From the IMG/VR virus record IMGVR_UViG_3300013117_000343, positions 1 through 50,508 of that record: 50,508 nt of DNA; one strand, 5' to 3'. Source of the DNA: a virus. Lineage: Duplodnaviria; Caudoviricetes. Below are positions 247 through 48,866 of the stretch, piece by piece. The notes below the pieces were generated by a model, which was given only the letters and a program-made list of their open reading frames with translations, did not search any database and had not been told where the DNA came from. Position numbers and translations under genes: made by a program. The first letter of the stretch is position 1. Each line of letters begins with the position of its first letter.

Positions 247-1446
247 TTAGGTGGTAGAGGCTCTACGTGTTATCTTATACTTTCTCCCTCTACCATCTGC
301 AATTTCCTCTATTTCTCCACAATCTAATAGTGTTCTTATTATTATACTCATCTCTTGGCTGTCAGCCAGCCGCCAACACTTCCTAAGAAGTTCAGCATGA
401 TTGATTGGTCCACTCCTCTTAATCATTGAGTGCACTCTCTCTATCACCCCACCAATCTTAGTAGAAGTCACGCTATCAAGTATAGACATTAAATTATTCT
501 CATTAGACGCCATTAGGTTGAGGGCTTCATAAATATGTTCCTCTGATATTAGGAGGTCAGAACCCTCAGATACTGATAAAAGTGCTGATACTTTAAACAT
601 AGTATCATGCTTCCTCCCGTAATATCCATCTAGTTTCTCATCCCTAGTTACACTCATCTCCGTTTCATACCAGTCTATAGCTGCCTGCTTAGCTTTCTTG
701 GTAAATTTTACAGGTCCTCTAAGCTCAGACCTTATTATGTTTAGGTCATAAGTTAAGTCTTTCCTCATTTCCACTTCATCTGGGCTCTCCTCTATCTCCC
801 TCCCATCTGATGCCTCTTCATTAAATAGGTGGTCTTTTGAAGGTCTCTCTTGGTAGACGAAAACTACTCGGGATGTGAAGCCTCCTCCTACTGCTACGTC
901 TGGGATACTTTCGGCTAAGCTTGATTTTGTTGTTGCGGCTAGCATTCCTAAAGTGGGGTTTTTGAGGATTTCCTTACCACCACCTTTTGTATGGTATATC
1001 CACTCGCCTTTGGGACTGTCATAGAGGTCGTTTAGGAGGGAGGTAATGCCCCTATTTATTGCATCCTTACTTAGTAAAACCTGAAGCTCAGTTGAGAACA
1101 GCATACCATAGCAGGAGGTTCCAGTGGTTGACTTTAGGAGAGCACCTATAAGTGCTTCAGGGGTTACTTTTTGGGCAAACACTGTGGGGGGTTTAACCAT
1201 TTGTTCTATCATACCTCTGCCAATATTGAGAGCAGACGACTTCCTGCACTTAGCACTCTCGGCTACCAGTATTACAAACAAGTTGGGATATATTGTATAT
1301 TTAATTCTCGGTATCCAAACTGACCTTCCTATTGCAGCGCTTAATACTGTGAGCCCAGTCCACTGATGAAACGCTTTGGGACTTTCTTGATTGTAAGTGT
1401 AGTCTAAGTAAGTTTCTAACCATGGCTTCTTACAATGTCTTAACAT
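247..1446 (-). CDS. DUF3987/YfjI-like P-loop ATPase with probable C-terminal winged helix; candidate replicative helicase or origin-binding protein
   Basis: ESPxxFHxW...YPNLFVILVAESAKCRKSS (variant Walker A), TPEALI, LYDSP, GGGFTSRVVFV; stop/start overlap with the polymerase gene. Confidence 0.7.
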   Translation of the reverse strand: MLRHCKKPWLETYLDYTYNQESPKAFHQWTGLTVLSAAIGRSVWIPRIKYTIYPNLFVILVAESAKCRKSSALNIGRGMIEQMVKPPTVFAQKVTPEALIGALLKSTTGTSCYGMLFSTELQVLLSKDAINRGITSLLNDLYDSPKGEWIYHTKGGGKEILKNPTLGMLAATTKSSLAESIPDVAVGGGFTSRVVFVYQERPSKDHLFNEEASDGREIEESPDEVEMRKDLTYDLNIIRSELRGPVKFTKKAKQAAIDWYETEMSVTRDEKLDGYYGRKHDTMFKVSALLSVSEGSDLLISEEHIYEALNLMASNENNLMSILDSVTSTKIGGVIERVHSMIKRSGPINHAELLRKCWRLADSQEMSIIIRTLLDCGEIEEIADGRGRKYKITRRASTT

Positions 1447-3734: not shown

Positions 3735-4029
3735 GTTTTACAAACCTCCCCTCTTTGTCCCTTCCTCTAGTGTGCTCTGCATTAACCCAACCAGAGTTAT
3801 GGCACACCACACAAAGAATTTTTAGATTGTCTATATTATTGTTCATTTTATTACCATCTTTATGGTGAGTGTTTAGGTTATGTGGAAAGCGTTTTCCGCA
3901 ATTTTGACACAGTTTTTGGTCAACTCCATTTTCTTGAAGTATTTTTTTAACAGTTCTATAAATGGTTGACCTGCACGTTCCACCTTTCCATTGATGATTT
4001 TTGTTCCCTAATTGACCTTCTTTGGTCAT
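3706..4029 (-). CDS. HNH endonuclease (free-standing, possibly homing)
   Basis: CQNCG...HHKDGNKMNNNIDNLKILCVVCH and N-terminal GNKNHQWKGG; start taken at ATG 4029 after GGAGG. Confidence 0.9.
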   Translation of the reverse strand: MTKEGQLGNKNHQWKGGTCRSTIYRTVKKILQENGVDQKLCQNCGKRFPHNLNTHHKDGNKMNNNIDNLKILCVVCHNSGWVNAEHTRGRDKEGRFVKHGEEGVWRG

Positions 4030-4037
4030 AATACCTC

Positions 4038-4223
4038 CTACTTGTTTGGTCTCCCACACTCAGGACAAAAGTTTGAGCTCGGCCATATTATTGTTTTACA
4101 ATGTTTGCACCTGGGCATATCAACTGCCTTCATTCCACACACCACACAGAATTTGCCAGAATATATAGCCATTCCGTATTGTTGACATTGTTTGTTTGAA
4201 CACATTTTTATTCCAATTTCCAT
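4038..4223 (-). CDS. Double zinc-ribbon small protein
   Basis: Four Cys pairs including KFCVVCG, RCKHCK, NFCPECG. Confidence 0.8.
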   Translation of the reverse strand: MEIGIKMCSNKQCQQYGMAIYSGKFCVVCGMKAVDMPRCKHCKTIIWPSSNFCPECGRPNK

Positions 4224-4224
4224 A

Positions 4225-5493
4225 CTATTCCTCCAATCTTTTAACTATGTTGTTGTAGTAGGTGTTATCTAACTCTATCCCTATCCCTATTCTACTAAGT
4301 TCCTTAGCCGCAACAATGGTGCTTCCGCTTCCTGCAAAGGGGTCTAATACTTTTTCACCAGGAAGGCTAGATAAACCAATAAGACCTCGCAAGAACTCTG
4401 TTGGCTTTTCCGTTGGGTGGATTTTCTTATTAGAGGGGACCCTCTTAATTGAGAAGATATCTCTAGGTGTTCCATTAAGTTTCCTCCCTCCTTTCCTACA
4501 ATAGAAGAATGGTTCGTAAGAGGAGGTAAAGTTAACAGACTGACTTGGAAAACCTCCACTGAGTTTGTCCCAGATTAGTGGGATGTGGTGGACCTGGAAG
4601 CCTACTTTTTCCAGTAGCTCTTTAATTTTGTTGTAATGTTGACATCCGAAGAAGATGTAAGCGTGCCTGTCATCCTTTAAAATGCGGAACATTTGAGCGA
4701 AGGCCTTATCCAACATGTCAAGGATGGTGAATTCATCATCTGGGCAGGGATATACCTTGTTGTGGGTCTTTTTAAAGGACTCGGCTTCGCCTAGGTTTAT
4801 CCCAAAGGGTGGGTCGGCTATGATAAGGTCAATTGACCCAGTTTCCATCTTTCCCATCTCCTTCACACAGTTGCCATGGATGATGTTGGGTGTTGCTATT
4901 ATCTTGCTGGTTTTAAGCCTCTTAGCTAGTTCAGCGTTTAGGATGTCTTCCTGCTTTTGCTTTAACTTTTTAAAAGCTACACTTTTGGACTTCTCTTTTT
5001 TGAGTTCGGGGAAGGCTTTCATTCCCCTAGCTAAAGCTATATCCATGGAGACTGTTCCCATACTTTCACCAAGGGCTTCAGCAGTGTCTCTCAACTTCCA
5101 ACCATCAGAGTCGTGTCCTTTAACTGCACTTCCATAAATCTTCTGTTTAAGTTTGTGAAGCTCAGCTTTTGCATTAACTTCCTCTTGCCAAGTGAAGGCT
5201 TCCCGCTGGATATTCTCCTCTAACTCAAGCTCTTTCTTCTCAAGTTCGTTCAGGTCCTTTCGAAACTTAACCTCAATTGAGCCCCACCTCTCCTCATTTT
5301 TAGTCCGTTTGAGTATTGAGAGGCAGGCTCGGAGCCTTCTCTCACCAGCTATTAACCTGTTCTTGTCATCTATTACAATTGGGTGGATTAAACCATAGGT
5401 CATAATAGATTGGGCAAGTTTGTCTACTCCCTCAAACTTCTTTCTAAACCTACTTCCTACTTGGATTTCGGTTATTTTAATTTTGGGCATCAC
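4225..5493 (-). CDS. ParB/Srx N-terminal domain fused to a beta-class N6A/N4C DNA methyltransferase
   Basis: GLIHPIVI..LIAGERRLRA..ELEENIQRE (ParB); ADPPF, HPTEKP, VLDPFAGSGST (MTase motif IV before motif I). Confidence 0.93.
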   Translation of the reverse strand: MMPKIKITEIQVGSRFRKKFEGVDKLAQSIMTYGLIHPIVIDDKNRLIAGERRLRACLSILKRTKNEERWGSIEVKFRKDLNELEKKELELEENIQREAFTWQEEVNAKAELHKLKQKIYGSAVKGHDSDGWKLRDTAEALGESMGTVSMDIALARGMKAFPELKKEKSKSVAFKKLKQKQEDILNAELAKRLKTSKIIATPNIIHGNCVKEMGKMETGSIDLIIADPPFGINLGEAESFKKTHNKVYPCPDDEFTILDMLDKAFAQMFRILKDDRHAYIFFGCQHYNKIKELLEKVGFQVHHIPLIWDKLSGGFPSQSVNFTSSYEPFFYCRKGGRKLNGTPRDIFSIKRVPSNKKIHPTEKPTEFLRGLIGLSSLPGEKVLDPFAGSGSTIVAAKELSRIGIGIELDNTYYNNIVKRLEE

Positions 5494-7604: not shown

Positions 7605-8455
7605 TTCTTCACCTCCTCTACCTCTTTAAACGGTTCCCATTTTTCCACTTTATACTCCCTCTCAATAACCCGATGGTCCTCCCCATACATGCAGAGTGTC
7701 TTAAAAGGGCATTCAGAGTTGTAACTATAACATTGGTCCTTTCTTTCACACTCATAGAACTCATTCTCTTTCTCACACCAAAGAATATCCCTAATATACC
7801 TCTGAACATTAAGCTTAAACCTCTCCCTGAGTTGGGTAGTCCTGGTCTTAGGGTCTCGGTAGAAGTGTTCCTCAGCCTTCTTGGTCTTCTCAGTTACCCT
7901 CTTAGTTTCCTTCCAGGGTTGAAGAGCATTAACTACGCAGCCAAAGCATTTCTCCCCGAAGTAAGCTTCTGCGCACAGGATATACCCAGTTATTTGGAAG
8001 TCAAGGTCAAACTGTTTGAAGTAGTTGAAGTTAAGGACAGATGCTGTTTTATGCTCAACTATCCAAAGCTCCTTTCCCCATCTAACTGGTAAGTCTATCC
8101 TCCCTGCATAGAGTATATCTCCTATAGGATAAACGAAGCCTATCTCGGGCTTAGCCGCCAGTGTAAAAGGCTCCTTAGCATACACCTTTGCATACCATCT
8201 TAAAAGCTTCTCCCCATTTTCCTGAGTTCTAAGGCTATCACCTTCCCTATCTTTGTAGGTTTCCCTGAAAATCGCAATAGCTTTATCCATGCTATTGGAA
8301 TTATACCACATCTCTAGGGCTTTGTGAATAGCCCCTCCAAATTCTAACGGAGCACTGGTCACCTTAGGGGTTAGGTGCCTAACCATCCTATAATAGTACT
8401 TCTTCCGACATTCGAGAAAAGTACTAAGCATTGTGTAATCCCAGACTCTCTCCAT
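7601..8455 (-). CDS. PD-(D/E)XK exonuclease, Cas4/AddB-like with probable Fe-S cysteines
   Basis: FLECRKKYYY, FGGAIHKALE, GRIDL...IVEHKT, QITGY, C-terminal CYSYNSECPFKTLC. Confidence 0.9.
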   Translation of the reverse strand: MERVWDYTMLSTFLECRKKYYYRMVRHLTPKVTSAPLEFGGAIHKALEMWYNSNSMDKAIAIFRETYKDREGDSLRTQENGEKLLRWYAKVYAKEPFTLAAKPEIGFVYPIGDILYAGRIDLPVRWGKELWIVEHKTASVLNFNYFKQFDLDFQITGYILCAEAYFGEKCFGCVVNALQPWKETKRVTEKTKKAEEHFYRDPKTRTTQLRERFKLNVQRYIRDILWCEKENEFYECERKDQCYSYNSECPFKTLCMYGEDHRVIEREYKVEKWEPFKEVEEVKK

Positions 8456-8467
8456 CGCTTCTCCTTT

Positions 8468-8695
8468 CTACATTTTTACTAGTTTAAATACTACGATGTT
8501 CCTTACATCTTTCCTAGCCTTTAGCTTCTTAACTATAGCTAAAGCCTTCTCCTTAGTGTTAGCAAAATATACTGGGTCTGATTCTACTTCGTAGAATATT
8601 GCATACTTTGCTTTTTTAGGGTTACCACGTATTACATCAATGCTCATTTTTGCCCGTGCCCGTGTGTCATTACCCCAATAACCGAAACATGCCAT
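8468..8695 (-). CDS. Hypothetical protein
   Basis: Tightly packed ORF on the coding strand. Confidence 0.6.
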   Translation of the reverse strand: MACFGYWGNDTRARAKMSIDVIRGNPKKAKYAIFYEVESDPVYFANTKEKALAIVKKLKARKDVRNIVVFKLVKM

Positions 8696-8696
8696 C

Positions 8697-9548
8697 TCAA
8701 TTCACCCCCTTCCCCTTAATCTCAACTGAACAGTGCCCCCACTCTTGAAACCTATTAAACTTCACCTTTACATCACATGGGTTGCACACCCCATATTCTT
8801 CACATCTTCTAAACCCTCTAATTAACTTAACCTTATCATTTAATATGTGACCCATTGGGTTAATATCATTGTAGAGGTCATGATGACATCTAAAAATAAA
8901 ACCAGAGGGGTTTATCAAGAGCTCAGAAGGCTTACACTTAACAGTTAGTTTTCTAAGTTTAGTGCAAGCATTTTGATATTTGTAAGTGTTCTTCTCCCAA
9001 CCAGTGCTTAAAAACCTTTTAGTTCTAAAGTCTATGCCCCTCTCCTTACACATCCTAATCATAGACCTGTTAGTGTTCATAAACATAATATTATCAAATC
9101 CCCAGATGCCCACCTTATACCCCATCTTTTGAAGGGTGTGAACCTTGCTAACCATCTCAGCTTGATTGGTTTTTTTGTGTAGGCTAAACCTAATACTGGC
9201 ATATTTAGCTCTTCTTTTAAATACGTAAGGGTCAACTCTACTTACGAACTCATCCAGGTTAAACATACCATTAGTTACTAGGTCTAACCCTATCCCCTTA
9301 CGATATAAACCATCTACTATGGTATAAAATTGTGGGTGGATAGTCGGCTCTCCTCCTTGGAGAGTAAGAGGTAGGTCTGCTCTGTTCTGTATGCGAGCCA
9401 AACCATCTATCCACCCCGTAGCTCCTAACTCCTCCGTCTTAACGAGCCTGTCGAACCTATTGATACAGTAGGTGCAAGCCATGTTACACCGAAAAGTTAA
9501 GAAAACTCCTACGTAGTTATAAGTTTTGGGTAGTGTGATTGGTCTCAT
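8697..9548 (-). CDS. Radical SAM enzyme with C-terminal twitch/SPASM-like cysteines
   Basis: CNMACTYC, GGEPTIHP, VTNG, C...GFIFRCH...CEEYGVCNPCD. Confidence 0.92.
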   Translation of the reverse strand: MRPITLPKTYNYVGVFLTFRCNMACTYCINRFDRLVKTEELGATGWIDGLARIQNRADLPLTLQGGEPTIHPQFYTIVDGLYRKGIGLDLVTNGMFNLDEFVSRVDPYVFKRRAKYASIRFSLHKKTNQAEMVSKVHTLQKMGYKVGIWGFDNIMFMNTNRSMIRMCKERGIDFRTKRFLSTGWEKNTYKYQNACTKLRKLTVKCKPSELLINPSGFIFRCHHDLYNDINPMGHILNDKVKLIRGFRRCEEYGVCNPCDVKVKFNRFQEWGHCSVEIKGKGVN

Positions 9549-10056
9549 ATAAGTCCTTTTCTTCTATTACCAAAGTTGGTAATGGTGAGATAAACATACT
9601 GTTGTAGAGGCTTTGTATTCTCTCAGGTTTTACTAATCGGACGGTTGTGATGTGGGGCTCAAACACGTTGGTGAAGTCATGGTTGTGTTGAAGACCTACA
9701 TCAAATTTGCCATCCTGGGAACCAATTATCGCTCTGATTAGGATTGGAAGAGTGAATTGCCCACCACTCATCTTCGGCACTAGAGCCATGTGGTTTATAA
9801 TTGCATCGGCGGCTATTAGCATGAAGTCCATTCTTTGGAACACCACTATAGGTTTGTAGCCTTGCATCGCAAGACCTATTGCAGCCCCTGCAATTAAGTT
9901 TTCGCAGATGGGCATCTCTAAGCATTTTTTCGCATTTACTTTGGTCATGGTGCCATATATATCTCCTGCGTTTTTTAACCCTTCTCCGAGGAACACGGTC
10001 TTTGGTTGTTCTCCTAGCCATGTCATCACCTCCGTTAGTTCTTGTTTATAGGTCAT
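9517..10056 (-). CDS. TPP-dependent E1-beta/transketolase pyrimidine-binding domain only (no C-terminal domain)
   Basis: VFLGE, EMPICENLIAGAAIGLAMQGYKPIV, DAIINH, GLQH; 179 aa. Confidence 0.9.
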   Translation of the reverse strand: MTYKQELTEVMTWLGEQPKTVFLGEGLKNAGDIYGTMTKVNAKKCLEMPICENLIAGAAIGLAMQGYKPIVVFQRMDFMLIAADAIINHMALVPKMSGGQFTLPILIRAIIGSQDGKFDVGLQHNHDFTNVFEPHITTVRLVKPERIQSLYNSMFISPLPTLVIEEKDLYETNHTTQNL

Positions 10057-10199
10057 ATTATCTCCTTTATTTTCTCTTTTTTATATTCATAGCCGCACAA
10101 AGGGCATTTTTCGTGTTGAATGCCAAACTCTGCATGGCAGTTACCACATGTTACTTCAACTTTTACAATCCCTAATCTAATTAGGTCTTTAAGTTTCAT
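10053..10199 (-). CDS. 48-aa zinc-ribbon protein (not in ORF track)
   Basis: Hand translation MKLKDLIRLGIVKVEVTCGNCHAEFGIQHEKCPLCGYEYKKEKIKEII; ATGA overlap with E1-beta. Confidence 0.65.
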   Translation of the reverse strand: MKLKDLIRLGIVKVEVTCGNCHAEFGIQHEKCPLCGYEYKKEKIKEII

Positions 10200-10377
10200 T
10201 AGTTTGTTTTTGCCTTATGCTGTCAAGCACCTCCCATGTAGTGGGTTTATCAAGCCGCTTTAGAAATCGTATTTACCTTTCCAAAGGATAAAACCCTTGG
10301 TGCCATAGAAATAACAATTTCCATAAGAAACCATATTCCTTTACTTTCATAACTACCTCCTTTTTCTAACTACAATT

Positions 10378-10572
10378 TTAACACCCCATCCCTTCTACTG
10401 TTGCCTGTTTTATTATATCTTCTTGGGGGACACTTACATAGTGATGTTTACAAATCCAGACCTTCTTCCCATTGTGTTCTACCACCTGAAAATCTTTGGT
10501 AATGGGTTTCTTGCAGATAGGGCACTGACCCTTATCTACTCTACTAGATACAATGTTATTACATTGAGACAT
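10378..10572 (-). CDS. Small zinc-finger protein
   Basis: CPICKK...WICKHH. Confidence 0.6.
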   Translation of the reverse strand: MSQCNNIVSSRVDKGQCPICKKPITKDFQVVEHNGKKVWICKHHYVSVPQEDIIKQATVEGMGC

Positions 10573-11197
10573 GTGCACCTACCCCCACGTGAGGCCACCT
10601 TCTCACATAGTTATACCTTATTATATTCCTCGCAACCATTGGTGTAAAGTTATGCCATCTCTCTTCTTTGGTGCTCTCCACCGCAAGGTCATTATCCTCT
10701 ATTATGAAGGTGAGAGGTAGACTGCGGGAGTTGCCAAACCTCACTGCCTCCATAAAATGCCCAGTGTCTTCTCCACCATCTCCCACGAAGCACCAGACAT
10801 GACCTTTAGACCTCTTCTTTTTTAATCCAAGGGCTAGACCTACAGCAATAGCACACCCTCCACCCACTATCGCTGAGGTTAGGAAGTTAATTGACTTATC
10901 GTAGATGTGCATGCTCCTTCCCTCTCCTTTGCAGATGCCACTCTTCCTACCTAAGATTTCATCATGGAGCTTTTGGGCATCTCCTCCTTTTAAGAGATAG
11001 TGGTAATGGTTTCTATGAGAACTAACTACCCAATCTTTAGGTTTAATTGAACTAAAGAGTGAGATTAGCTGCTCCTCATTTCCTCCTGATAAGTGGATGG
11101 GGCAGGAAATCTTACCTTGTTTAAATAAAGTCTTAATGTTCTCCTCAAACCCTATGAGCTCTTCCTTTGTCCATCTCTTATTAGGTATACTCTTCAT
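10559..11197 (-). CDS. TPP-dependent dehydrogenase E1-alpha-like subunit, short form
   Basis: HLSGGNE, SSHRNHYH, GRSMH, AIVGGG, TPP motif GDG..EDN; 212 aa. Confidence 0.92.
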   Translation of the reverse strand: MKSIPNKRWTKEELIGFEENIKTLFKQGKISCPIHLSGGNEEQLISLFSSIKPKDWVVSSHRNHYHYLLKGGDAQKLHDEILGRKSGICKGEGRSMHIYDKSINFLTSAIVGGGCAIAVGLALGLKKKRSKGHVWCFVGDGGEDTGHFMEAVRFGNSRSLPLTFIIEDNDLAVESTKEERWHNFTPMVARNIIRYNYVRRWPHVGVGAHVSM

Positions 11198-11409
11198 CTT
11201 AATATCTTTGATACCTCCATCATCGCCTCTATTTTACCGTTTATGAGCAATGGGTGATAAATACCCTGTTGACTTTTAATTACATCAAGGTATTTATTCA
11301 TGCTCTTTAATATCCTTATGCTCTCCCTTATCTTACCTATTTCAAACCAGACCTTCGCTGTTATTATAAGACATAAAATGTGGAATAAAGTAACTATCAA
11401 AGTCCCCAT
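11194..11409 (-). CDS. Small protein with N-terminal transmembrane helix
   Basis: LIVTLFHILCLIITAKVW. Confidence 0.55.
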   Translation of the reverse strand: MGTLIVTLFHILCLIITAKVWFEIGKIRESIRILKSMNKYLDVIKSQQGIYHPLLINGKIEAMMEVSKILR

Positions 11410-12755
11410 ACTCTCCTCCTTGTCTCTAATCTAATCCGATTTAGCTCTTCCAGGGAAACTCCCATCATCCCTGCTATCTTTTTAGCCTTAAGAGTTGAGC
11501 TAAAGTTAATCCTATCCCACTCATAGGCTCTAATCATAGTTATCTCCTTAGAGGTGAACTCTGAGGTCTCTATTTGACCCTCTCTCCAGCTATCTCCCTC
11601 TTTTAGGCACTTCCCTTTGACGCACATGTCCCACAGGCGAGTATGTTTAAGAGGGGTGGCTGTAAAGACCTTAGTATAATCGGCGTCTATATACTCGGCT
11701 ACTTTAAGGGTCTTTCTAATCTCAGTCCAGGTCTCCCCTGGGAAACCTATGATGAAATTAGCCGCCACAAAGATACCATACTCTTTAGCATCTTGTATAA
11801 CACATTTGGCGTCTTCTAAGTCTATCCTTTTACCTATGATTTCCCTTTGAACTCTCCTGCTTCCACTCTCAATGGCTACATCGATATACTTACAGCCGCT
11901 CTTAGCCATAAGTCCAATCATCTCATCATCCATTTTGATTACTGAGGTAGCTATCATAGACCAAGGCATAGTGAGACCTCTCCTAATCATCTCTTGGAAA
12001 AGACTCTTAGCCCTCTTCTCATTATATAGTAGGTTATCGTCGTCAAAAATAAGAGACTTAATCTTATAATCCTTCTTAAGCCAGCTAATCTCTTCAATAA
12101 CATTTTCTACACTCCTTCCTCTCCAGCGTTTGCCCATTATCTCCTCTACTTGACAGAAACAACACCCATACGGACAGCCCCTAGACGTTATAATGCGTCC
12201 ATAAGGATACGAACACGGAGCGTCTACACTTTTCCGTATGGGTGGTTTATTTATATATGATTTTAAATCAATTAAGTCGTATGCGGGTAGGGGGAGTTCA
12301 TTTAACTTTTGGATTGGGAGGGCTTGGTGAATACCATGCCAACTATAGCCAAGGGTTATTTGGTTCATTAGGTATTCTCCCTCTCCCTTGACTATTATAT
12401 CTATCTCTGGAGCTTTTATTAAGATGTCAGCGTTCATACTGGGAGATACTCCTCCAACTACTACTTGTATTTTTTTAGATACAGCTTTAACTGCTTTGGC
12501 GGCTCTAAGAGTGGCTCCAAGTTGAGAGTCTATCATAGTAGTTATACCTACCATGTCTGGTTTCTCTTTCTCTACACGTTTTGCAAATACTGATGTTTCT
12601 AAGTCCTCTTTATAAGCATCTATTATATTTACCATAGTCCCATTCTTTCTAACTTTGGCGGCAAGGAGGCATAGATTGTAAGGTATGTAATCCCAGAGGA
12701 AATCCTTGTTTGTCTCACTCCATCTAAAGTTGGGGACTACAAGGGTTAGGTTCAC
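11397..12755 (-). CDS. Cobalamin-binding (class B) radical SAM enzyme, putative methyltransferase
   Basis: PDMVGIT, VVVGG, KGEGE, TSRGCPYGCCFC, FDDDN, IESGS, FIIGFPGET. Confidence 0.95.
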   Translation of the reverse strand: MNLTLVVPNFRWSETNKDFLWDYIPYNLCLLAAKVRKNGTMVNIIDAYKEDLETSVFAKRVEKEKPDMVGITTMIDSQLGATLRAAKAVKAVSKKIQVVVGGVSPSMNADILIKAPEIDIIVKGEGEYLMNQITLGYSWHGIHQALPIQKLNELPLPAYDLIDLKSYINKPPIRKSVDAPCSYPYGRIITSRGCPYGCCFCQVEEIMGKRWRGRSVENVIEEISWLKKDYKIKSLIFDDDNLLYNEKRAKSLFQEMIRRGLTMPWSMIATSVIKMDDEMIGLMAKSGCKYIDVAIESGSRRVQREIIGKRIDLEDAKCVIQDAKEYGIFVAANFIIGFPGETWTEIRKTLKVAEYIDADYTKVFTATPLKHTRLWDMCVKGKCLKEGDSWREGQIETSEFTSKEITMIRAYEWDRINFSSTLKAKKIAGMMGVSLEELNRIRLETRRRVWGL

Positions 12756-13297
12756 AAGTCCTCCCTATTATCCCTCATCATGTTTAATGTCTCTTTGTTA
12801 AGTATCCTAAATGAGTGTAATTGCCTTCTAAACTCAAACTCTACCATCTCCTCCTCATAGAATACATACTCTATTACGGCCTTTCTGCCTGCTATTGAGA
12901 TAGGTAGACATACTCTTATATGACGAGAATGATTATGTATTGTCATTTCTTCTGGGTAATACTTAATAAAGTTAAATATCCTGCCCCTGATATAATTAGC
13001 AAGCCTTGTCCTAATCTTCTTCTGGCTCCATTTGTAATTAAGGCGTTCTTGTAACCAATTTCCTATAGCGTGTATTTCTTCTCTCCTTTTAGGAGCATTC
13101 TTAATAAACCTGTGTATAGTATTGTTAATCCTCCTATCAGGATTGTTTTGGGACACCAGCTGGGGTCTTAATCCCGTGGTGAGTGGAAGTGTCATTATAA
13201 GTAACATTAAACATACCCTATCCATATCCACAGTCAGGTTCCCCCTCACTATCCTCAACTGCCCACTCACATATGTGTGGAATTTGACTCTCACCAC
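12752..13297 (-). CDS. Hypothetical protein with hydrophobic segment (start uncertain)
   Basis: ORF on coding strand; VCLMLLIMTLPLTTG may be a signal or TM segment. Confidence 0.55.
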   Translation of the reverse strand: MVRVKFHTYVSGQLRIVRGNLTVDMDRVCLMLLIMTLPLTTGLRPQLVSQNNPDRRINNTIHRFIKNAPKRREEIHAIGNWLQERLNYKWSQKKIRTRLANYIRGRIFNFIKYYPEEMTIHNHSRHIRVCLPISIAGRKAVIEYVFYEEEMVEFEFRRQLHSFRILNKETLNMMRDNREDL

Positions 13298-13326
13298 TCA
13301 TAATACACTTTGTGAAAGGGCAAAGT

Positions 13327-13704
13327 TTACTGCGACTGATGCCTAATTTTAACCTCTCTAAACCCCTTCTTAGTAGTCCTGTTAATCTCATTTTTATACT
13401 CCACTCTCTTCCTGTTAAGGTTTCTAATAGCTATTGCCCTTCTCCCTATCTCAGAGAGAGTAAACTTCTTCTCGCCGCCTTTCCTAATTTCATTCTCCAG
13501 GTTCCAAATGTCTATATTTGCCATAGTAAGTCTAATAGTTGCTGTTATTAAGTGAGAATTTATTCCTGAAGCATTGAGTCCCTTGATTATACTTTGGTAT
13601 TCAGGATATGCTGCTTCCTCACCAAAATATATTTTACGAATGAGAATTGAAAGCTTGTCTATTACATCACCAAGAGAGTATTGAGGTAGTTTAGACTTTT
13701 TCAC
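13327..13704 (-). CDS. DUF6165-like helical protein
   Basis: SLGDVIDKLSIL...NIDIWNLENEIR...AIAIRNLNRKRVEYKNEIN...EVK. Confidence 0.75.
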   Translation of the reverse strand: MKKSKLPQYSLGDVIDKLSILIRKIYFGEEAAYPEYQSIIKGLNASGINSHLITATIRLTMANIDIWNLENEIRKGGEKKFTLSEIGRRAIAIRNLNRKRVEYKNEINRTTKKGFREVKIRHQSQ

Positions 13705-13886
13705 AATTTTTATCCTTTCTATGAATTGTCATGTGCTCACTAAATGTGACAACTGCACTACTACCGCAGTATACGTATTTTGTTATTTGACAGTATACTC
13801 TGTTTATATGCCTTTTTTTATGGGTGTATTCAACGTATGGTCTACCATTTTTATATTTTACTTTGTTAATATTTATAGGTGTTCCA

Positions 13887-14105
13887 TTATAACTCCATAA
13901 CTTTCAATAATATACTAAAACATCTCTTGCAAACGTGCATCTTCTTAACAAATTCTATTCTATTAGGGGGAGATAATAGAATACCTCCAAACTCTTCAAG
14001 TCTTTCTTTACAAAAATAGCAGATAGGTTTTATGCCTATTCCCTCTTTTCTCCTTCTTCTCCTAGCATCGCTATACTTATGCTTCCCCATAAATCCTCCC
14101 ATCAT
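13887..14105 (-). CDS. Small zinc-finger protein
   Basis: CYFCKE...GGILLSPP...HVCKRC. Confidence 0.65.
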   Translation of the reverse strand: MMGGFMGKHKYSDARRRRRKEGIGIKPICYFCKERLEEFGGILLSPPNRIEFVKKMHVCKRCFSILLKVMEL

Positions 14106-14153
14106 TTATCATCTTACACACTTCCATTAGGTCTTTGTCTACTTTCTCTCTCA

Positions 14154-14174
14154 TAATTTCAATTTTTGAACTTA
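14154..14174. promoter_or_regulatory. 21-bp palindromic operator, copy 2
   Basis: Minus strand TAAGTTCAAAAATTGAAATTA; the final A begins an ATG. Confidence 0.75.
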
Positions 14175-14395
14175 CTACTTCCAAAGTAATGCACACACCA
14201 CATAAGCAATCCCATTAACTATTAGTGTTATCCCTATCAGCATCATCGTTGGGTTTTTAACCTCTATCATTGTTTGCCCCCGCCTCCTTTTCCTTCTGCC
14301 ATTAAATTATCCATTATTCTTAACATTTCCTTTTCACTTACAACATCCCCTAATTTATATGTCATATTAGTCCTCTCCTTCCCCTAAATCTTCTT

Positions 14396-15079
14396 TTACC
14401 CTTCATTCTCTTTTATTACATCCTCGATTTTTAAATCATCACCCCATTGGGATATATAAAATAAATCTTTACAATCTTTCACCATGCCAAAAACTATCGG
14501 GTCGGGAACATTTTGCACATGTGCAACAACAAACTCCGAAAAACAATCTAATTTTTTTGCTTTAACTACATTGTCCAGCACATATTCAGGGGGTGTTGTG
14601 TCCCATTCTCTTAATGGTGTTAACTTTACCTCCTTTTGCTTGTTAACCCTTTCGGATACTTTACCACCATAATGCAATAAACAGATAAAGCCAGCTAGGC
14701 AGACTCCAGAAATAATGGACGGCCACAATAAGACATTGTTTTCTTTGACCAAGTAAGACAAGCTAGTAATTGACACAAATAAACTTAATAAAGCACCCAA
14801 AAAAGTTAGGTTAGCTAATAGCTGTAGTCTCTTACGGTTGTTTAAACTTTTCTCAAAATCGTCCAAATTTTTAGGTGTTACATATTTATAATGTTCATAT
14901 GCTACTGCTCTTCCCTTTGATACAACAACCTTAGATTTAATGCATTCTAACACTTTAACTAGCCCACACATTTCCAGCTTCGCTAAATAATCTTCAATGT
15001 GTGGATTAAGCTCAACTGCTTCTCTTTTTTTAGCTTTCTCAGCTAACTTAAGTAATGCCCATTTGTCTCCCATTTTCAT
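14396..15079 (-). CDS. Hypothetical protein with two central TM helices and C-terminal PDPIVFG...ISQW motif
   Basis: Two hydrophobic stretches at about aa 85-137; GGAG RBS. Confidence 0.75.
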   Translation of the reverse strand: MKMGDKWALLKLAEKAKKREAVELNPHIEDYLAKLEMCGLVKVLECIKSKVVVSKGRAVAYEHYKYVTPKNLDDFEKSLNNRKRLQLLANLTFLGALLSLFVSITSLSYLVKENNVLLWPSIISGVCLAGFICLLHYGGKVSERVNKQKEVKLTPLREWDTTPPEYVLDNVVKAKKLDCFSEFVVAHVQNVPDPIVFGMVKDCKDLFYISQWGDDLKIEDVIKENEG

Positions 15080-15146
15080 CTCTCCTCCTTATCTATTAAC
15101 CCCTCCTCAATATCACAGGTTCTTTAACTAAACATTCATTACAAAA

Positions 15147-15254
15147 CTAAGCCTTAACTTTTTTATTAGGCGCAAAATCAAATACAGGCCTCCACTTACC
15201 ATTACCCTTAGTAATCTCAAAGTATTTATTGCAATGATAGCAGTTGTTACTCAT
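15147..15254 (-). CDS. 35-aa hypothetical protein (CxxC)
   Basis: MSNNCYHCNKYF...; GAGGAG RBS. Confidence 0.45.
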   Translation of the reverse strand: MSNNCYHCNKYFEITKGNGKWRPVFDFAPNKKVKA

Positions 15255-15270
15255 TGGCTTCTCCTCTATT

Positions 15271-17304
15271 CTAAATAAAGTTAATATGCTCAGGTGGATT
15301 AAGGTAGTTCCATATGAATGCATTTGTGAAATCATGGCGGCACGAGCCAGCACACATAGTATGCACATCAAAATCTTCCCTCATATACTTAATTATATGC
15401 CAATACCTATCACTATCAATAATCTCTTTTAGAGTATTTTTCTTAAGGTCACCATAACAATAATCACTATTATTGAATAGATAACCACAAGGGTAGCATT
15501 TAGAATTCCCACTAATTTGAAAAATAAGGGGACAATCTACACATCTATCATAAGGTCTCCTACCCTTACTCGCTATCATCCCCCATTTAGGGACAATTTT
15601 AGTCTTATCATTAGATAGCTTCTGAGCTTGTTTCAACACCTCTAACACTCTCTTATTATCATACCAGTTTAAATTAAAGTGGGACATACCCTTACACCCT
15701 GGGTCAGAGAACTGTTTAATTACGAAATAGTCAACTCCCTCTCTTACTGCCCACTTAGCCTCTGGTATTACTTGCTCAAGACAGTCAGGTATAAACACCA
15801 TCTGAAGTCCAATGGTGCACTTATACCCTTTAGTTTTCTTAATATAGATTGCAGAACGGATAGCGGCCTGCACACGCTCCCACTGAGGAACACCATGAAT
15901 GGTTTTATATCCTCCTGAGTCAACGGCAGATAGGTTGAAGCGAAGCCATGTGCAGGTGGAGAGAAGAATTCTTAACTTAGTCTCATCTAAAAAGATACCA
16001 TTTGTTGCAAATCCTATGTCTAACCCCCACTTCTTACCCTCAATACAAGCATCATAGACGGCTGGGTTAAGTGTAGGCTCCCCATCTCCCGTGAGGGTAA
16101 GAGACTTAACTCCCAAGTATGGGGCATCTATAAAAAGTTTAATGAGTATATCTCTTGGTATAACATCCATTGACATCTTTTGATGTATACCATAACAATT
16201 GTGAACACAAAGTCCTTTTGCAATAAATGTATGACTTTCGGTTGTTAGGTCATACACTTCAGTAACTCTTCCGATTGACACAAAATTAACTCTTAATACG
16301 CCCTCAATTTTACAATCAAAAGCTTTTTCAAACTTTCTTGTTATAGCGGGAGTTGTTACTTGCATAAATCTAATACGATTTTCATAACCTTTTGTAACTC
16401 TTACCACTTTTACACTTTTACCATAATCCTCTAACGTGTTTGGAATGTGGAGCTTGTTCAATGACAATGTTATCATATGCAATACAGAAGTGTCGCTATT
16501 AGATATTCTCAAATTGTTTCCGCTTATACTTCCTTCAGCGTCAAAAATACCTCCAAGGTATCCTCTGTAGAAGCTTTGACTTTGCCCCAACAATAAGTCT
16601 TTGTAACTTATAAATTTTTTAAGAAGATGTGTGTGCTCTTTTCCTATTACATAAAGCTTATGCTTACTTCTTTTATAAGAAACAATGAAACCTATATCAA
16701 TTAGGTATTGATAGGCTCTATCAAGGGCTTCTATGTCAATCATGTCCAATCTCATATGATAGGTAGAGTATCTAGGTGATATATTAAATGTGCCATCACC
16801 ATCTATTATTCCTTTTACATAACCTATTTTGTAATCTCTATCTATTAACTGTATAGGTATTTGCTTTCCTATGTAATGAACATCATTATTATTCGTTAGT
16901 TTTCCAGCATCTTTCCATCCTCTATGTTTGACAAGGACTTGGTGGTCTGGAGTAATCTCTAATGTTTCTCCATTTGTAAAGTGCACTACATTGGTGATAG
17001 CCATTCTTTTGTGGATATCTGTAACAGTGGTATATTTTAATCTTCTTTGCTTATGTATATTTCCAATCTCATCAAAACCTATAACAGTGTCCCCAACCTT
17101 GACATCTTTTATTGGCTTTGTGCCCAAAGGTGTGGTTATTGGTGTATCTCCTGTTACACAATAAATACATTTAGCATTACACCTCTTAGTAGCACCAATA
17201 TCTATATGGAGGGGATATATTTTCCAACTGTTTCGGTAGTGGTTATTAACCCTGTCCAGGTGCCATAAGAGTTTACACCCATCAAAAAGGTAGGGGTTAT
17301 CCAC
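15271..17304 (-). CDS. Radical SAM/SPASM-twitch enzyme interrupted by an intein
   Basis: Spliced motif CNAKCIY/CYG; TGDGEPTLNP, ATNG, CYPCG...YCYGDL, CAGSCRH. Confidence 0.93.
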   Translation of the reverse strand: MDNPYLFDGCKLLWHLDRVNNHYRNSWKIYPLHIDIGATKRCNAKCIYCVTGDTPITTPLGTKPIKDVKVGDTVIGFDEIGNIHKQRRLKYTTVTDIHKRMAITNVVHFTNGETLEITPDHQVLVKHRGWKDAGKLTNNNDVHYIGKQIPIQLIDRDYKIGYVKGIIDGDGTFNISPRYSTYHMRLDMIDIEALDRAYQYLIDIGFIVSYKRSKHKLYVIGKEHTHLLKKFISYKDLLLGQSQSFYRGYLGGIFDAEGSISGNNLRISNSDTSVLHMITLSLNKLHIPNTLEDYGKSVKVVRVTKGYENRIRFMQVTTPAITRKFEKAFDCKIEGVLRVNFVSIGRVTEVYDLTTESHTFIAKGLCVHNCYGIHQKMSMDVIPRDILIKLFIDAPYLGVKSLTLTGDGEPTLNPAVYDACIEGKKWGLDIGFATNGIFLDETKLRILLSTCTWLRFNLSAVDSGGYKTIHGVPQWERVQAAIRSAIYIKKTKGYKCTIGLQMVFIPDCLEQVIPEAKWAVREGVDYFVIKQFSDPGCKGMSHFNLNWYDNKRVLEVLKQAQKLSNDKTKIVPKWGMIASKGRRPYDRCVDCPLIFQISGNSKCYPCGYLFNNSDYCYGDLKKNTLKEIIDSDRYWHIIKYMREDFDVHTMCAGSCRHDFTNAFIWNYLNPPEHINFI
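16198..17160 (-). mobile_element. 321-aa intein with LAGLIDADG homing endonuclease
   Basis: Block A CVTGDTPI, block B ITPDHQV, YVKGIIDGDG and YLGGIFDAEG, blocks F/G VYDLTTESHTFIAKGLCVHN followed by +1 Cys. Confidence 0.96.
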
Positions 17305-17608
17305 TTTTCAAATCCTCCATTGCAGCCTTTACAAACTCTTCTGCTATTACATGGATTTGTTTAACTAGTGCTTCCCCCATTTGCATTACATCGGGAGCAC
17401 TAACTATAGAGCCTACAACTTGGCTCATAGACTTATTATCTCCAACTGGTGCTATAGTGAAAAGGATGAAACTCCTAGCTTTTCCAAGAGCACTCACTGC
17501 TTCCTTCATATTCTTATCAAGTGCTATCTTTCTGAGCTCAGGATTATTGTTTGTTATCACTATCCTCTCATCTCTATTCTTATCCATCTTCCCCTCCTCA
17601 TTTGACAT
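17297..17608 (-). CDS. Hypothetical protein
   Basis: ORF on coding strand, overlaps neighbours. Confidence 0.65.
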   Translation of the reverse strand: MSNEEGKMDKNRDERIVITNNNPELRKIALDKNMKEAVSALGKARSFILFTIAPVGDNKSMSQVVGSIVSAPDVMQMGEALVKQIHVIAEEFVKAAMEDLKSG

Positions 17609-17765
17609 ACTTAATCTCCCTCGTGGGAAACCTAAGAACTAGGTCTTTATTAGCTTCCTCAATTGAGTCAAACTCTTTGCCTGCGGCATCTTGAGAGTTC
17701 TTAGCCACCCACCAAAAGGTTCTGTAAGCATCAACTATCTCCACTATCAGTTTAGTTTGGGTCAT
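17598..17765 (-). CDS. Hypothetical protein
   Basis: AGGAG RBS precedes ATG 17765. Confidence 0.55.
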   Translation of the reverse strand: MTQTKLIVEIVDAYRTFWWVAKNSQDAAGKEFDSIEEANKDLVLRFPTREIKYVK

Positions 17766-17991
17766 GGTTCTTCTCCTTAAGATAAATGTTTCCAAATTTA
17801 TCCATCATGACTTCGTCTTCGTCTATGCTGTAGCGAGGGAAGCCATACTCACATTGCCAGACGCCTTTACTTAACCTAACTAGAGGTCTCCCACAACTAC
17901 ATTTGGCGTTCCCATCAAAGATTGCGAACCACTGCCCTCCACTTAGCATCTCACTTTTATAATCCCCTTCAAACGGGACTCTCTCACTCAC
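17752..17991 (-). CDS. Small zinc-ribbon-like protein
   Basis: KCSCGRPL...GVWQCEYG. Confidence 0.6.
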   Translation of the reverse strand: MSERVPFEGDYKSEMLSGGQWFAIFDGNAKCSCGRPLVRLSKGVWQCEYGFPRYSIDEDEVMMDKFGNIYLKEKNHDPN

Positions 17992-19081
17992 TCTTCCCCT
18001 CTTTCCTAACCTTCTCTATAACCTTTTCAAAGTCATTACCCATACCAATATCCTGCACAACATTATCCCCCACTATTTTAAAATGCTTTCTCCTATTAAA
18101 TGCATCTTTTCCTTGAAGCTCAGTCTCAACTCCCTTATTAAAGTCATTTAACTCAATAGCCTTCTTCTTACCATAGGCTGCCTTCCTAGCTCCCAACAGG
18201 ATTGCATTTTTAATCTGACCTCCAGTGAGGTCATGGGTAGATAAAATCTCAAAGCAGACACATTTAGCTAACGGTGCCTCTTTAGGGATTAGGTTTCTCC
18301 AGATTTTTGCTCGGGACGCCTTGTCTGGTTTAGTGAACTCAAGCTTAAGACATATCCTTCTTTCAAGTGCGGGGTCTAACTCATGGCTTCTATTAGTGGT
18401 GAGGATACAGGTCCCCTCAAACCGCTCAATCTCGGTGAGGAGGGTATTTATCTCAGCGGCTAGGATAGCTCCCACCTTATTCCTGCTGTATACTAGACTA
18501 TCGCACTCATCTAATATTACTACTGCATCTTTAGAATGGGCAGAGGAAAATGCCTTGGCTATATTCCTCTCTGCCTGTCCTGGGACTGAGCTCTGGATAT
18601 TTTTGGTGCTTAACATTAAATAATCTTTACCAAGAGCCTCCGCAATAGCTTCAGCACACATAGTCTTCCCAGTTCCTGGAGGTCCCCAGAAGAGGAGGAT
18701 AGCACCCTTCCCCTTCTCAATAGTAGAGGCAAACCCCCACTCCTGAAATATCTTCTCACTTATCTCAGCGTTAGATTGGGAGATTGTCTCTAAGATTAAC
18801 TGCTTAACCTTCTCAGGGAGGACTAATATATTCATCATACTATTAACCTTCTTCCTCTTCTTAATCTCCTGTCTCCCTATTACCCTGAACTCGGCTTGGG
18901 TGATATAACTTCGCCCAACATCTAATATGTAATGCTTACCTTGACAATAGCCAGTAATAGTATACTCCTTACCTATGGTGTAACTATGACTACAAGTATT
19001 ACTCATAACCACCACCTTAGTTCCAAGAGGCAGTAACTTAACTGGCAGCTCTGGTCTTCTCAGCCAATCCTCTGAAGTCAT
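17984..19081 (-). CDS. Classical AAA+ ATPase with short N-terminal beta domain
   Basis: GPPGTGKT, VILDECD, second region of homology TTNR..LDPALERR, LTGGQIKN. Confidence 0.92.
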   Translation of the reverse strand: MTSEDWLRRPELPVKLLPLGTKVVVMSNTCSHSYTIGKEYTITGYCQGKHYILDVGRSYITQAEFRVIGRQEIKKRKKVNSMMNILVLPEKVKQLILETISQSNAEISEKIFQEWGFASTIEKGKGAILLFWGPPGTGKTMCAEAIAEALGKDYLMLSTKNIQSSVPGQAERNIAKAFSSAHSKDAVVILDECDSLVYSRNKVGAILAAEINTLLTEIERFEGTCILTTNRSHELDPALERRICLKLEFTKPDKASRAKIWRNLIPKEAPLAKCVCFEILSTHDLTGGQIKNAILLGARKAAYGKKKAIELNDFNKGVETELQGKDAFNRRKHFKIVGDNVVQDIGMGNDFEKVIEKVRKEGKSE

Positions 19082-48785: not shown

Positions 48786-48866
48786 ATGGATGTTGAGAGG
48801 ATAGTATTAGGTTTAATAGTAATAGCATGGATATGCTTGGCAATTAAAGCTTGGAGAAACTTATGA
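48786..48866 (+). CDS. 26-aa single-TM peptide (not in ORF track)
   Basis: MDVERIVLGLIVIAWICLAIKAWRNL; ATGA overlap with the next gene. Confidence 0.45.
   Translation: MDVERIVLGLIVIAWICLAIKAWRNL

Follow-up and report, generated by a model that had tools for sequence, protein, structure and literature searches.

A minimal E1-type enzyme pair and radical SAM partners form a conserved cassette, proposed to tailor nucleotide sugars, in a 50-kb phage

We describe a gene cassette at positions 8697-17304 of the virus record IMGVR_UViG_3300013117_000343 (IMG/VR; Caudoviricetes), the whole 50,508-nt stretch of which was analysed here and is referred to as the window. The conserved core of this cassette is a twitch/SPASM radical S-adenosylmethionine (SAM) enzyme, a four-helix DUF4254-like protein, a minimal E1-alpha/E1-beta thiamine diphosphate (TPP) enzyme and a compact second radical SAM enzyme, rSAM283. 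The cassette genes are a functional unit, because they co-occur in many unrelated genomes, in varied orders and as fusions, and we consider it probable, at roughly 0.6, that they tailor a nucleotide sugar by radical oxidation or rearrangement, followed by TPP-dependent addition of a two-carbon (C2) unit and, optionally, B12-dependent methylation. The initial annotation of this DNA, made from its letters alone, had described three radical SAM genes co-oriented with genes for an E1-alpha (212 aa) and an E1-beta (179 aa), and we recovered these open reading frames (ORFs) to the exact nucleotide, all on the minus strand. The main genes are listed here with their Pfam scores.

8697-9548, minus strand: rSAM283, a compact SPASM-type radical SAM enzyme of 283 aa, conserved core (PF04055, 33.1 bits)
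9517-10056, minus strand: E1-beta-like subunit of 179 aa (Transket_pyr, PF02779, 42.2 bits against a cut-off of 27)
10559-11197, minus strand: E1-alpha-like subunit of 212 aa (E1_dh, PF00676, 75.9 bits against a cut-off of 22)
11397-12755, minus strand: B12-binding (class B) radical SAM enzyme of 452 aa (PF02310, 61.7 bits against 32.1; PF04055, 90.8 bits)
13327-13704, minus strand: 125-aa protein, core in this phage clade (DUF4254, 21.4 bits, below the cut-off of 27)
15271-17304, minus strand: twitch/SPASM radical SAM enzyme whose 677-aa precursor contains an intein, conserved core (PF04055, 36.0 bits)

The E1 pair has the features of a TPP-dependent enzyme, with GDG-X(24-27)-N in one domain and a Glu in the other. 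E1-alpha covers the PF00676 profile only at positions 9-177 of 300 and comprises just the TPP diphosphate-binding (PP) domain, while residues 14-170 of E1-beta align to positions 17-172 of the 174 in PF02779 and comprise just the TPP pyrimidine-binding (PYR) domain, the Transketolase_C domain being absent from E1-beta as judged with Pfam. In 25 E1-alpha sequences G139-D140-G141, E167, D168 and N169 (numbering of the window protein) were invariant, and the G, D, G, E and N of this GDG...E-x-N TPP/Mg motif were likewise invariant in a second set of 17 E1-alpha sequences. The invariant residues of E1-beta, determined with 17 sequences and numbered according to the homologue in locus L013, included E47, P49 and E52; the Glu that we take to be catalytic was presumed from E1 structures. 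Scores for complex-forming pyruvate dehydrogenase (PDH) E1 subunits stayed far from membership (TIGR03182, 128 bits against 394; PRK09212, 72 bits against 321), and a six-frame search of the complete genome gave no match to either the E2 catalytic domain (PF00198) or the lipoyl domain (PF00364), in agreement with the early description of short E1 subunits lacking E2/E3. Since a lipoyl-E2 is absent, the E1 pair cannot pass a C2 unit on to one.

Relatives of this E1 pair were found to be widespread. Of 1270 candidate homologues of E1-alpha, 1017 reached E<=1e-10; the best of them show 58-73% identity, have a length of about 210 aa and often lie on contigs of 45-51 kb. Scanning IMG/VR with an alignment of 25 sequences gave 450 contigs having an E1-alpha relative, and scanning with the single E1-alpha protein gave one locus only. 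Prokaryotes, each species being represented by a single genome, gave 39 cellular loci, mostly from Woese-, Pace- and Nanoarchaeota (DPANN archaea), the others including Desulfobacterales, Omnitrophota, Planctomycetota and Pelagibacterales, with some of the loci on contigs of 0.86 and 2.7 Mb. In total 124 loci, denoted by the prefix L, were fetched for analyses of neighbouring genes: the first five, the 39 cellular loci and the best 80 of the 450 IMG/VR loci, many of which are near-copies.

Neighbours were counted using tblastn at E<=1e-5 within 5 kb of E1-alpha, and the counts support the initially proposed linkage of the two E1 genes with a radical SAM gene. E1-beta was found near E1-alpha in 75/80 IMG/VR and 37/39 cellular loci, and a SPASM-type radical SAM enzyme in 43/80 and 23/39, respectively (23/46 and 20/28 when the count is restricted to loci that extend 5 kb or more to either side). 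For rSAM283 the corresponding numbers were 12/80 and 12/39, for the B12 enzyme 4/80 and 14/39, and for the 125-aa protein 10/80 and 2/39. Using blastp on called ORFs, which is more sensitive, a radical SAM neighbour was found for 71 of 107 distinct E1-alpha sequences; 19 of the remaining sequences had a zinc (Zn) alcohol dehydrogenase neighbour instead and 17 had neither. When the presence of a radical SAM neighbour was mapped as a label onto an E1-alpha tree, three changes sufficed, as compared with a mean of 30.4 after shuffling, and none of 500 shuffles gave a number as low.

The order of the genes varies. In the 12 loci of the close clade (L006-L017), having E1-alpha proteins 56-65% identical to that of the window, neither a B12 gene nor an intein is present, and the order, where the locus extends far enough, is radical SAM, 125-aa protein, E1-alpha, E1-beta, rSAM283, nuclease, AAA_24, methylase and PolA; the ORF that follows E1-alpha in L009 was considered as an E1-beta and rejected. 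The order E1-alpha, E1-beta, rSAM283, radical SAM, B12 enzyme is found in L018, that of radical SAM ... E1-alpha, E1-beta, B12 enzyme, rSAM283 in L056, and that of E1-beta, radical SAM, E1-alpha in the 735-kb phage LR756501 and in about 37 IMG/VR loci. The archaeal loci L090, L100 and L124 hold all five parts, including a B12 enzyme 43-47% identical to that of the window, together with up to four SPASM-type and three B12 paralogues.

Several of these parts also occur fused. We found 28 E1-alpha/E1-beta fusions of about 400 aa, and the phage protein family phrog_34187 (405 positions) represents such a fused form, with E1-alpha matching positions 5-198 and E1-beta positions 237-405. In a metagenome-assembled genome (MAG) of a DPANN archaeon, E1-beta is fused to a radical SAM/SPASM enzyme (L100:10606-12246, 546 aa), from which a complex of the two proteins would be expected, and in another DPANN MAG a DegT/DnrJ/EryC1 aminotransferase (E=4e-90), E1-alpha and E1-beta form a single protein of 788 aa (L116:6308-8674). 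The idea that these genes merely represent unlinked auxiliary metabolic genes, i.e. the remnant of a pyruvate or acetoin dehydrogenase E1 lying beside radical SAM genes by chance, would fit with the label 'pyruvate dehydrogenase E1 alpha' that homologues carry in their sources and with an acoA annotation on two Acinetobacter phage contigs. We nonetheless regard it as extremely improbable, with the E2/lipoyl domains absent and both subunits devoid of the C-terminal parts of a true E1, and because the co-occurrence and the fusions exclude a chance juxtaposition.

As a side observation, the stretches of about 5-18 kb in L090, L124, L086 and L100 carry 3-6 SPASM-type and 1-3 B12 paralogues around the E1 pair and among them hold GT9-like, NUDIX, DegT and short-chain dehydrogenase/reductase (SDR) genes, and represent an unusually radical-SAM-rich type of glycan locus.

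The setting of the relatives points to nucleoside diphosphate (NDP) sugars, as the initial annotation had proposed: relatives of the E1 pair lie in NDP-sugar or heptose clusters of the cyanophages S-SM2 and P-TIM68, of the 735-kb phage, of IMG/VR contigs and of DPANN archaea, and no single observation speaks more strongly for NDP-ketosugars as substrate of E1 than the L116 fusion with a DegT enzyme. In S-SM2 and P-TIM68 the fused E1 gene has a Zn alcohol dehydrogenase on one side and a carbohydrate kinase on the other, with nucleotidyltransferases, epimerases, phosphoheptose isomerase (GmhA) and glycosyltransferases in the surroundings. The triad of the 735-kb phage is flanked by two Methyltransf_14 sugar C-methyltransferases, an FkbM methyltransferase, four glycosyltransferase domains and a 4,6-dehydratase-type SDR, and L005 holds three SDRs, two DegT enzymes, RmlC and a PfkB kinase. 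The archaeal clusters encode a GT9 heptosyltransferase-family protein (nine loci) and NUDIX proteins (seven loci), as well as an HldE-like protein in which a PfkB kinase and a cytidylyltransferase-like domain are combined, a GHMP kinase, a Wzx-type flippase, GT2 and GT4.

This context was counted by tblastn; the queries were 14 neighbour proteins from the fetched loci, and 11 of these served as sugar markers. Any sugar marker was found in 4/5 of the first loci, 64/80 IMG/VR loci and 32/39 cellular loci, and a marker of the heptose type (GmhA, PfkB or HldE-like kinase, GHMP kinase or GT9-like protein) in 3/5, 24/80 and 26/39, respectively. The 16 IMG/VR loci having no marker were ten of the window's clade (L006-L008 and L010-L016) together with L018, L031, L032, L045, L047 and L056. 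The other two loci of that clade carry a GT9-like gene between the radical SAM and E1-alpha genes, in the slot taken elsewhere by the DUF4254-like gene (L009:8809-9738 and L017:9132-10022). Over about 300 residues these GT9-like proteins share 43-44% identity with their archaeal (DPANN) counterpart; that of L009 gave no direct sequence match in the Protein Data Bank (PDB).

In about 37 viral loci the genes belong to a structural operon with the order portal ... P22-like coat, 99-aa ORF, 562-aa GT2, 254-aa unknown protein, E1-beta, radical SAM, E1-alpha. The 254-aa protein gave no Pfam match and no PDB profile match, and it is unlike the GT9-like protein (hhalign probability 0.7%). The coat-adjacent module, as seen in L040 and L064 at 4.7-11 kb and in about 35 similar IMG/VR loci, hints at virion glycosylation. 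A related radical SAM gene in MW202801 lies one ORF downstream of the capsid gene and is followed by two glycosyltransferases. Another side observation concerns L091, where an acetolactate-synthase-family TPP enzyme (L091:481-2244; 5ahk, 7e-107), which may be of the YerE type or simply IlvB, is encoded about 8 kb from the E1 pair and near a homologue of the 125-aa protein.

All three radical SAM genes of the window exceed the PF04055 cut-off of 29.5 bits. The assignment of two of them to the twitch/SPASM subgroup in the initial annotation was borne out by domain matches, motifs and, for rSAM283, the predicted fold, with the correction that the 677-aa gene encodes an intein-split precursor. rSAM283 has its CxxxCxxC motif at C21/C25/C28 and a cysteine tail of CX10GX4C plus CX5CX2C, with C205, C221, C249, C255 and C258 being invariant in 20 homologues; it gave no Pfam SPASM match, yet its cysteines and fold place it in the SPASM/twitch subgroup. 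Its AlphaFold2 (AF2) model, at a predicted local distance difference test score (pLDDT) of 88.5, resembles SuiB, SkfB, PqqE, MoaA, anSME, SpeY, DesII and BtrN at template modelling (TM) scores of 0.34-0.57. The 677-aa protein scored 21.7 bits for SPASM (PF13186) against a cut-off of 21.5. In the family of this larger enzyme C43, C47, C50, C268, C286 and C331 are invariant and C335 nearly so, and the family profile matched SuiB (1.4e-11), anSME (1.5e-8, full length) and DesII (4e-8), as well as MoaA and SkfB, and also BtrN at 6.5e-7 in the auxiliary domain.

The insertion within the larger enzyme is a LAGLIDADG intein.

16198-17160, minus strand: LAGLIDADG intein, precursor residues 49-369, inserted at the third Cys of CxxxCxxC

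It matched the Intein_splicing, LAGLIDADG_3 and Hint models as well as the N- and C-terminal intein models, has the LAGLIDADG blocks GIIDGDG and GGIFDAEG, and thereby shows all the hallmarks of an intein. Its junctions read CNAKCIY/CVTGDT...VHN/C, with C49 as the first residue, N369 as the last and C370 at position +1. All of eight close homologues are intein-free (354-379 aa), lack residues 50-369 and align to residues 2-49 and 359/370-677, with 58-70% identity to the 677-aa protein over the C-terminal part. The mature enzyme would be about 356 aa upon removal of the intein and, because the insertion is at the third motif Cys, it can bind its cluster only after splicing. Its presence suggests that homing took place recently and struck where the enzyme is most conserved.

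The structural likenesses of the radical SAM enzymes are also what would favour a function in the maturation of peptides or proteins, whereby the SPASM enzymes would modify a precursor peptide or virion protein and the TPP enzyme would act on a side chain. The top matches with solved structures are maturases of ribosomally synthesized and post-translationally modified peptides (RiPPs), being SuiB for the larger family and SkfB (2.4e-10) and PqqE for the rSAM283 family; small ORFs lie within the cassette, and the module follows the coat gene in the roughly 37 loci mentioned above. However, those small ORFs (75, 66, 71 and 72 aa) have no relatives in the 124 loci, the conserved neighbours are sugar enzymes, and the DegT-E1 fusion points to NDP-ketosugars, all of which makes peptide maturation distinctly unlikely.

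The third radical SAM enzyme, having both a cobalamin-binding domain and a radical SAM core, belongs to class B. In contrast to the six genes initially taken as a fixed set, this enzyme is a recurrent accessory outside the core: none of the 12 close-clade loci L006-L017 encodes it, and relatives occur beside E1 genes in L018, L056, L020, L078 and L023 and, at identities of up to 47%, in cellular loci. It reached no curated class B methyltransferase family, the best NCBIfam score being 159 bits (Sden_1168) against a cut-off of 575, and the 25 NCBIfam matches listed of the 32 found were all below their cut-offs. Among solved structures it matched AprD4 (6fd2) at 7.6e-18 and an unnamed 450-aa enzyme (9ccb) at 7.4e-22. 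AprD4 is a dehydratase, and methyl transfer by the window's enzyme is a prediction that its sequence does not separate from other chemistry. GenK and Fom3 are class B radical SAM enzymes of the methyltransferase type.

The same scores raise a phosphonate-type or other small-molecule route, fosfomycin-like, in which a TPP decarboxylase would be combined with a B12 methyltransferase. The best NCBIfam models for the B12 enzyme are indeed P-methyltransferases (the above-mentioned Sden_1168 and PhpK, the latter at 121 bits), and Zn alcohol dehydrogenase and cytidylyltransferase-like genes lie beside E1 in relatives. Those scores are nevertheless only about a quarter of the cut-offs (575 and 600), with BchE and HpnJ scoring about equally, and phosphoenolpyruvate (PEP) mutase was found in none of four DPANN genomes carrying the cluster. 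In a fifth searched genome, of a Pelagibacteraceae member, PEP mutase was found on contigs C10 and C12, which may or may not include that of the E1 locus. The TPP subunits are furthermore of the E1_dh and Transket_pyr families, presumably not the family of the phosphonopyruvate decarboxylases, and we consider a phosphonate route very improbable.

The 125-aa protein had initially been called DUF6165-like. In the nearest Atlas clusters DUF6165 is carried by only 16-33% of the members and DUF4254 by 32%, and Pfam gave only the sub-threshold DUF4254 match. The protein had 535 homologues at E<=0.001, several of which, at 55-59% identity, carried a precomputed PF14063 assignment, and in L005 a true DUF4254 protein sits directly before E1-alpha. 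Its AF2 model (pLDDT 85) has four helices; Foldseek against the PDB gave no match at E<=0.001, and VIA-align gave only generic helical hairpins with Z of 8.5-9.6, too low for helical bundles and not allowing any function to be inferred.

With regard to known systems, the closest precedents for the E1 pair are AviB1/B2 of avilamycin and Pau11/12 of paulomycin biosynthesis, for which the passages of PMC4753412 and PMC4425429 dealing with them propose a pyruvate-derived C2 (C-4 acetyl) branch on a 4-keto sugar; the precedent of AviB1/B2-type pairs invoked in the initial annotation is thus in print. As in those systems, E1-alpha and E1-beta here stand alone, with no E2/E3, and in relatives the pair is found among NDP-sugar dehydratases, aminotransferases and transferases; this AviB1/AviB2-type setting, an E1 pair among nucleotide-sugar genes, is present in the relatives, whereas the window has no marker of it. 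The differences, as far as the published descriptions of the Avi and Pau proteins allow comparison, lie in size, with Pau11 and Pau12 having 325 and 345 aa (PMC4425429) against 212 and 179 aa of PP and PYR domains only, and in the partner, which here is a dedicated radical SAM enzyme instead of a 4,6-dehydratase route or a non-haem iron enzyme. YerE of yersiniose biosynthesis, a TPP-dependent flavoprotein, is likewise credited in PMC4753412 with attaching a C2 branch to a keto sugar. The E1 pair shares this proposed chemistry with YerE, while belonging to the E1_dh/Transket_pyr families. YerE consists of one polypeptide and is an enzyme of the acetolactate-synthase type. Two-carbon branched and other unusual sugars are known from antibiotics and O-antigens, and their installation by E1-type enzymes is a step still only proposed.

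The cassette radical SAM enzymes share the CxxxCxxC core and a C-terminal auxiliary-cluster domain with BtrN, DesII, SpeY and anSME. This likeness is at the superfamily level, with 12-17% identity, peptide maturases match equally well or better, and no NCBIfam equivalog cut-off was reached. On the phage side, the accounts of gene content in cyanophage and pelagiphage papers record 'LPS (lipopolysaccharide) clusters' and radical SAM cassettes with no function assigned to them (PMC3037559, PMC7029224). Among the LPS clusters of T4-like cyanophages and pelagimyophages, those of S-SM2 and P-TIM68 have a fused E1 beside a Zn alcohol dehydrogenase, a kinase, a nucleotidyltransferase and GmhA, whereas the phage of the window has tailoring enzymes only, placed in a replication arm, with no transferase or activation genes. 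A sugar module composed of an E1 and a radical SAM enzyme was not described in the full-text literature searched, which comprised main texts. What appears to be new is the proposed tailoring of nucleotide sugars by a minimal E1 with dedicated radical SAM partners, and here in a setting with no transferase.

From the gene content, motifs, co-occurrence, fusions and context given above, we infer the following substrate, chemistry, order of steps and biological role, the steps building in part on the known chemistry of these enzyme families. The cassette would act on a host-made, nucleotide-activated sugar, with the neighbours in relatives pointing to an NDP-heptose or NDP-hexose. In a first step the radical SAM enzymes would abstract hydrogen and oxidise, epimerise or rearrange the sugar, yielding a keto intermediate; in a second step the minimal E1 would decarboxylate a 2-oxo acid such as pyruvate and add the TPP-bound C2 carbanion to the carbonyl; and in a third, the B12 enzyme, where present, would methylate an unactivated carbon. 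The leading candidate for the substrate, suggested by neighbours of the heptose type and by the GT9-like gene that sister phages carry, is an activated heptose, which should be seen as a guess. Since the phage has tailoring enzymes alone, the sugar would have to come from the host, and since it has neither a sugar-activating enzyme nor a recognisable glycosyltransferase, the product would have to pass to a transferase of the host or to some phage protein that escaped recognition. The end effect is probably an altered surface glycan or a glycosylated protein.

Several observations weigh against this interpretation, starting with the phage glycosyltransferase that had been assumed initially. Six-frame searches of the whole genome gave no match to GT2, GT2_4, GT1, GT2_3 or GT9, nor to Epimerase (NDP-sugar SDR), and no transferase was found among ten structural-arm ORFs, so this part of the first proposal was not upheld. 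None of the 14 context proteins matched the window at E<=0.01. A search for a GT2 gene found one in only two of 12 relatives (L018 and L019, the more distant ones) and in none of the three relatives that are 96-100% complete. The cassette lies in the replication arm, away from structural and surface genes. The E1 subunits are far shorter than Pau11/Pau12, and their catalytic competence is a prediction. The nearest solved radical SAM structures are peptide maturases (SuiB, SkfB, PqqE) as well as sugar enzymes, and neither sequence nor fold separates peptide-acting from sugar-acting members. The viral counts, finally, are reduced in weight by the near-copies among the 80 loci, and the E1-alpha tree, made with FastTree, likewise has many near-copies among its rows and carries local support values only.

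The position among replication genes is also what would suit a hypermodification of DNA or nucleotides, in which a nucleotide, or the phage DNA itself, would receive an unusual substituent made by the enzymes, and radical SAM enzymes act in known phage base modifications. Against this stand the absence of any thymidylate-synthase-like or tRNA-guanine transglycosylase (TGT)/DpdA-like entry enzyme from the genome, as searched, and the absence of a glycosyltransferase; elsewhere the same genes occur in structural modules, in cellular glycan clusters and in the DegT fusion. DNA hypermodification hence seems unlikely.

Returning to sugar tailoring, a more far-reaching version of it, covering both chemistry and uses, is one that we put forward tentatively and with clear doubt. 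The E1 heterodimer and its dedicated radical SAM enzyme may work together as a so far undescribed pair that forms carbon-carbon bonds on activated heptoses or hexoses, whereby the former adds the C2 unit and the latter makes a keto or radical intermediate beyond the reach of ordinary dehydratases. B12 paralogues might then extend or methylate the product, giving branched higher-carbon sugars. The coat-adjacent lineages having a GT2 might use these for decoration of virions, whereas the window's clade might instead rewrite the nucleotide-sugar pool of the host, with host transferases building the altered surface, which in turn could exclude rival phages.

The remaining ORFs of the cassette region, five of which had no relatives in any fetched locus, are as follows.

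10053-10578, minus strand: spacer of about 0.5 kb between E1-alpha and E1-beta, with small ORFs outside the conserved system
10053-10199, minus strand: 48-aa ORF with a CxxC...CxxC pattern, its stop overlapping the start of E1-beta (ATGA)
10378-10578, minus strand: 66-aa ORF, no tblastn match in the 124 loci
11194-11409, minus strand: 71-aa ORF, no family match and no tblastn match in the 124 loci
12752-13297, minus strand: 181-aa ORFan, no family match, its own record being the sole match in 1.84 billion representatives
13887-14105, minus strand: 72-aa ORF, no family match and no tblastn match in the 124 loci
14396-15079, minus strand: 227-aa ORF with two hydrophobic stretches, no family match and no tblastn match in the 124 loci

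The small spacer ORFs were conserved in no relative, and the 181-aa ORFan is probably outside the system. Because phrog_34187 is an E1-alpha/E1-beta fusion, we also considered a group I intron between the two genes; this was rejected, with Rfam giving no match anywhere in the window and the gap containing the small ORFs. The G+C content is 0.365-0.377 in 2-kb windows of 12-18 kb, as compared with 0.40-0.42 in 1-12 kb and 0.398 at 18-20 kb. The low-GC stretch of 12001-18000 holds most of the B12 gene, the 181-aa ORFan, the relative-less 72-aa and 227-aa ORFs and the intein, which suggests later insertions into an older core.

The virus record is complete at 50,508 bp, with terminal repeats: an exact 119-bp direct repeat at 1-119 and 50390-50508 leaves a unique length of 50,389 bp, and the record is probably circularly permuted or terminally redundant. 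The minus-strand genes up to about 22 kb form a replication arm and the plus-strand half is structural, with one of its ORFs matching the SU10 adaptor family. The replication arm encodes a DUF3987 protein, a family A DNA polymerase, an HNH ORF, a ParB-DNA methylase fusion, AAA_24, a PD-(D/E)XK nuclease and an AAA ATPase; the cassette is flanked by the nuclease, AAA_24, the DNA methylase and PolA on one side and by the AAA ATPase on the other. Genes of note outside the cassette are these.

1446-3734, minus strand: family A DNA polymerase with an N-terminal UDG (uracil-DNA-glycosylase)-superfamily domain and a 3'-5' exonuclease domain
3706-4059, minus strand: HNH endonuclease ORF, overlapping the start of the DNA polymerase gene
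4225-5493, minus strand: ParB N-terminal domain fused to an N6/N4 DNA methyltransferase
48851-50185, plus strand: PurD-like ATP-grasp protein with GARS_A and GARS_C domains, at the end of the structural arm

No tRNA genes were found in the window. Promoter-like sites numbered 35, as compared with 32.0 +/- 5.5 in shuffled sequences, and terminator-like sites 7 as compared with 7.6, which did not inform on operon structure. Megablast of GenBank with positions 8000-18000 revealed no near-identical phage, and tblastn with rSAM283 likewise came out empty. In the GenBank set searched, the form linked to radical SAM genes was present in no cultured phage, S-SM2 and P-TIM68 being of the alcohol dehydrogenase type.

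These results identify a compact and widespread module, composed of a stripped-down E1 with radical SAM partners and found in 450 viral contigs, DPANN archaea and anaerobic bacteria, that two natural fusions tie to NDP-sugar chemistry. Its small and tractable genes would lend themselves to studies of TPP and radical chemistry combined on sugars, and the proposed activity gives a testable function to two long-noted features of marine phages, their 'LPS clusters' and their radical SAM cassettes. Why a phage of 50 kb should encode no more than the tailoring steps is a further question that arises here; this arrangement implies a hijacking of the sugar pool and transferases of the host.

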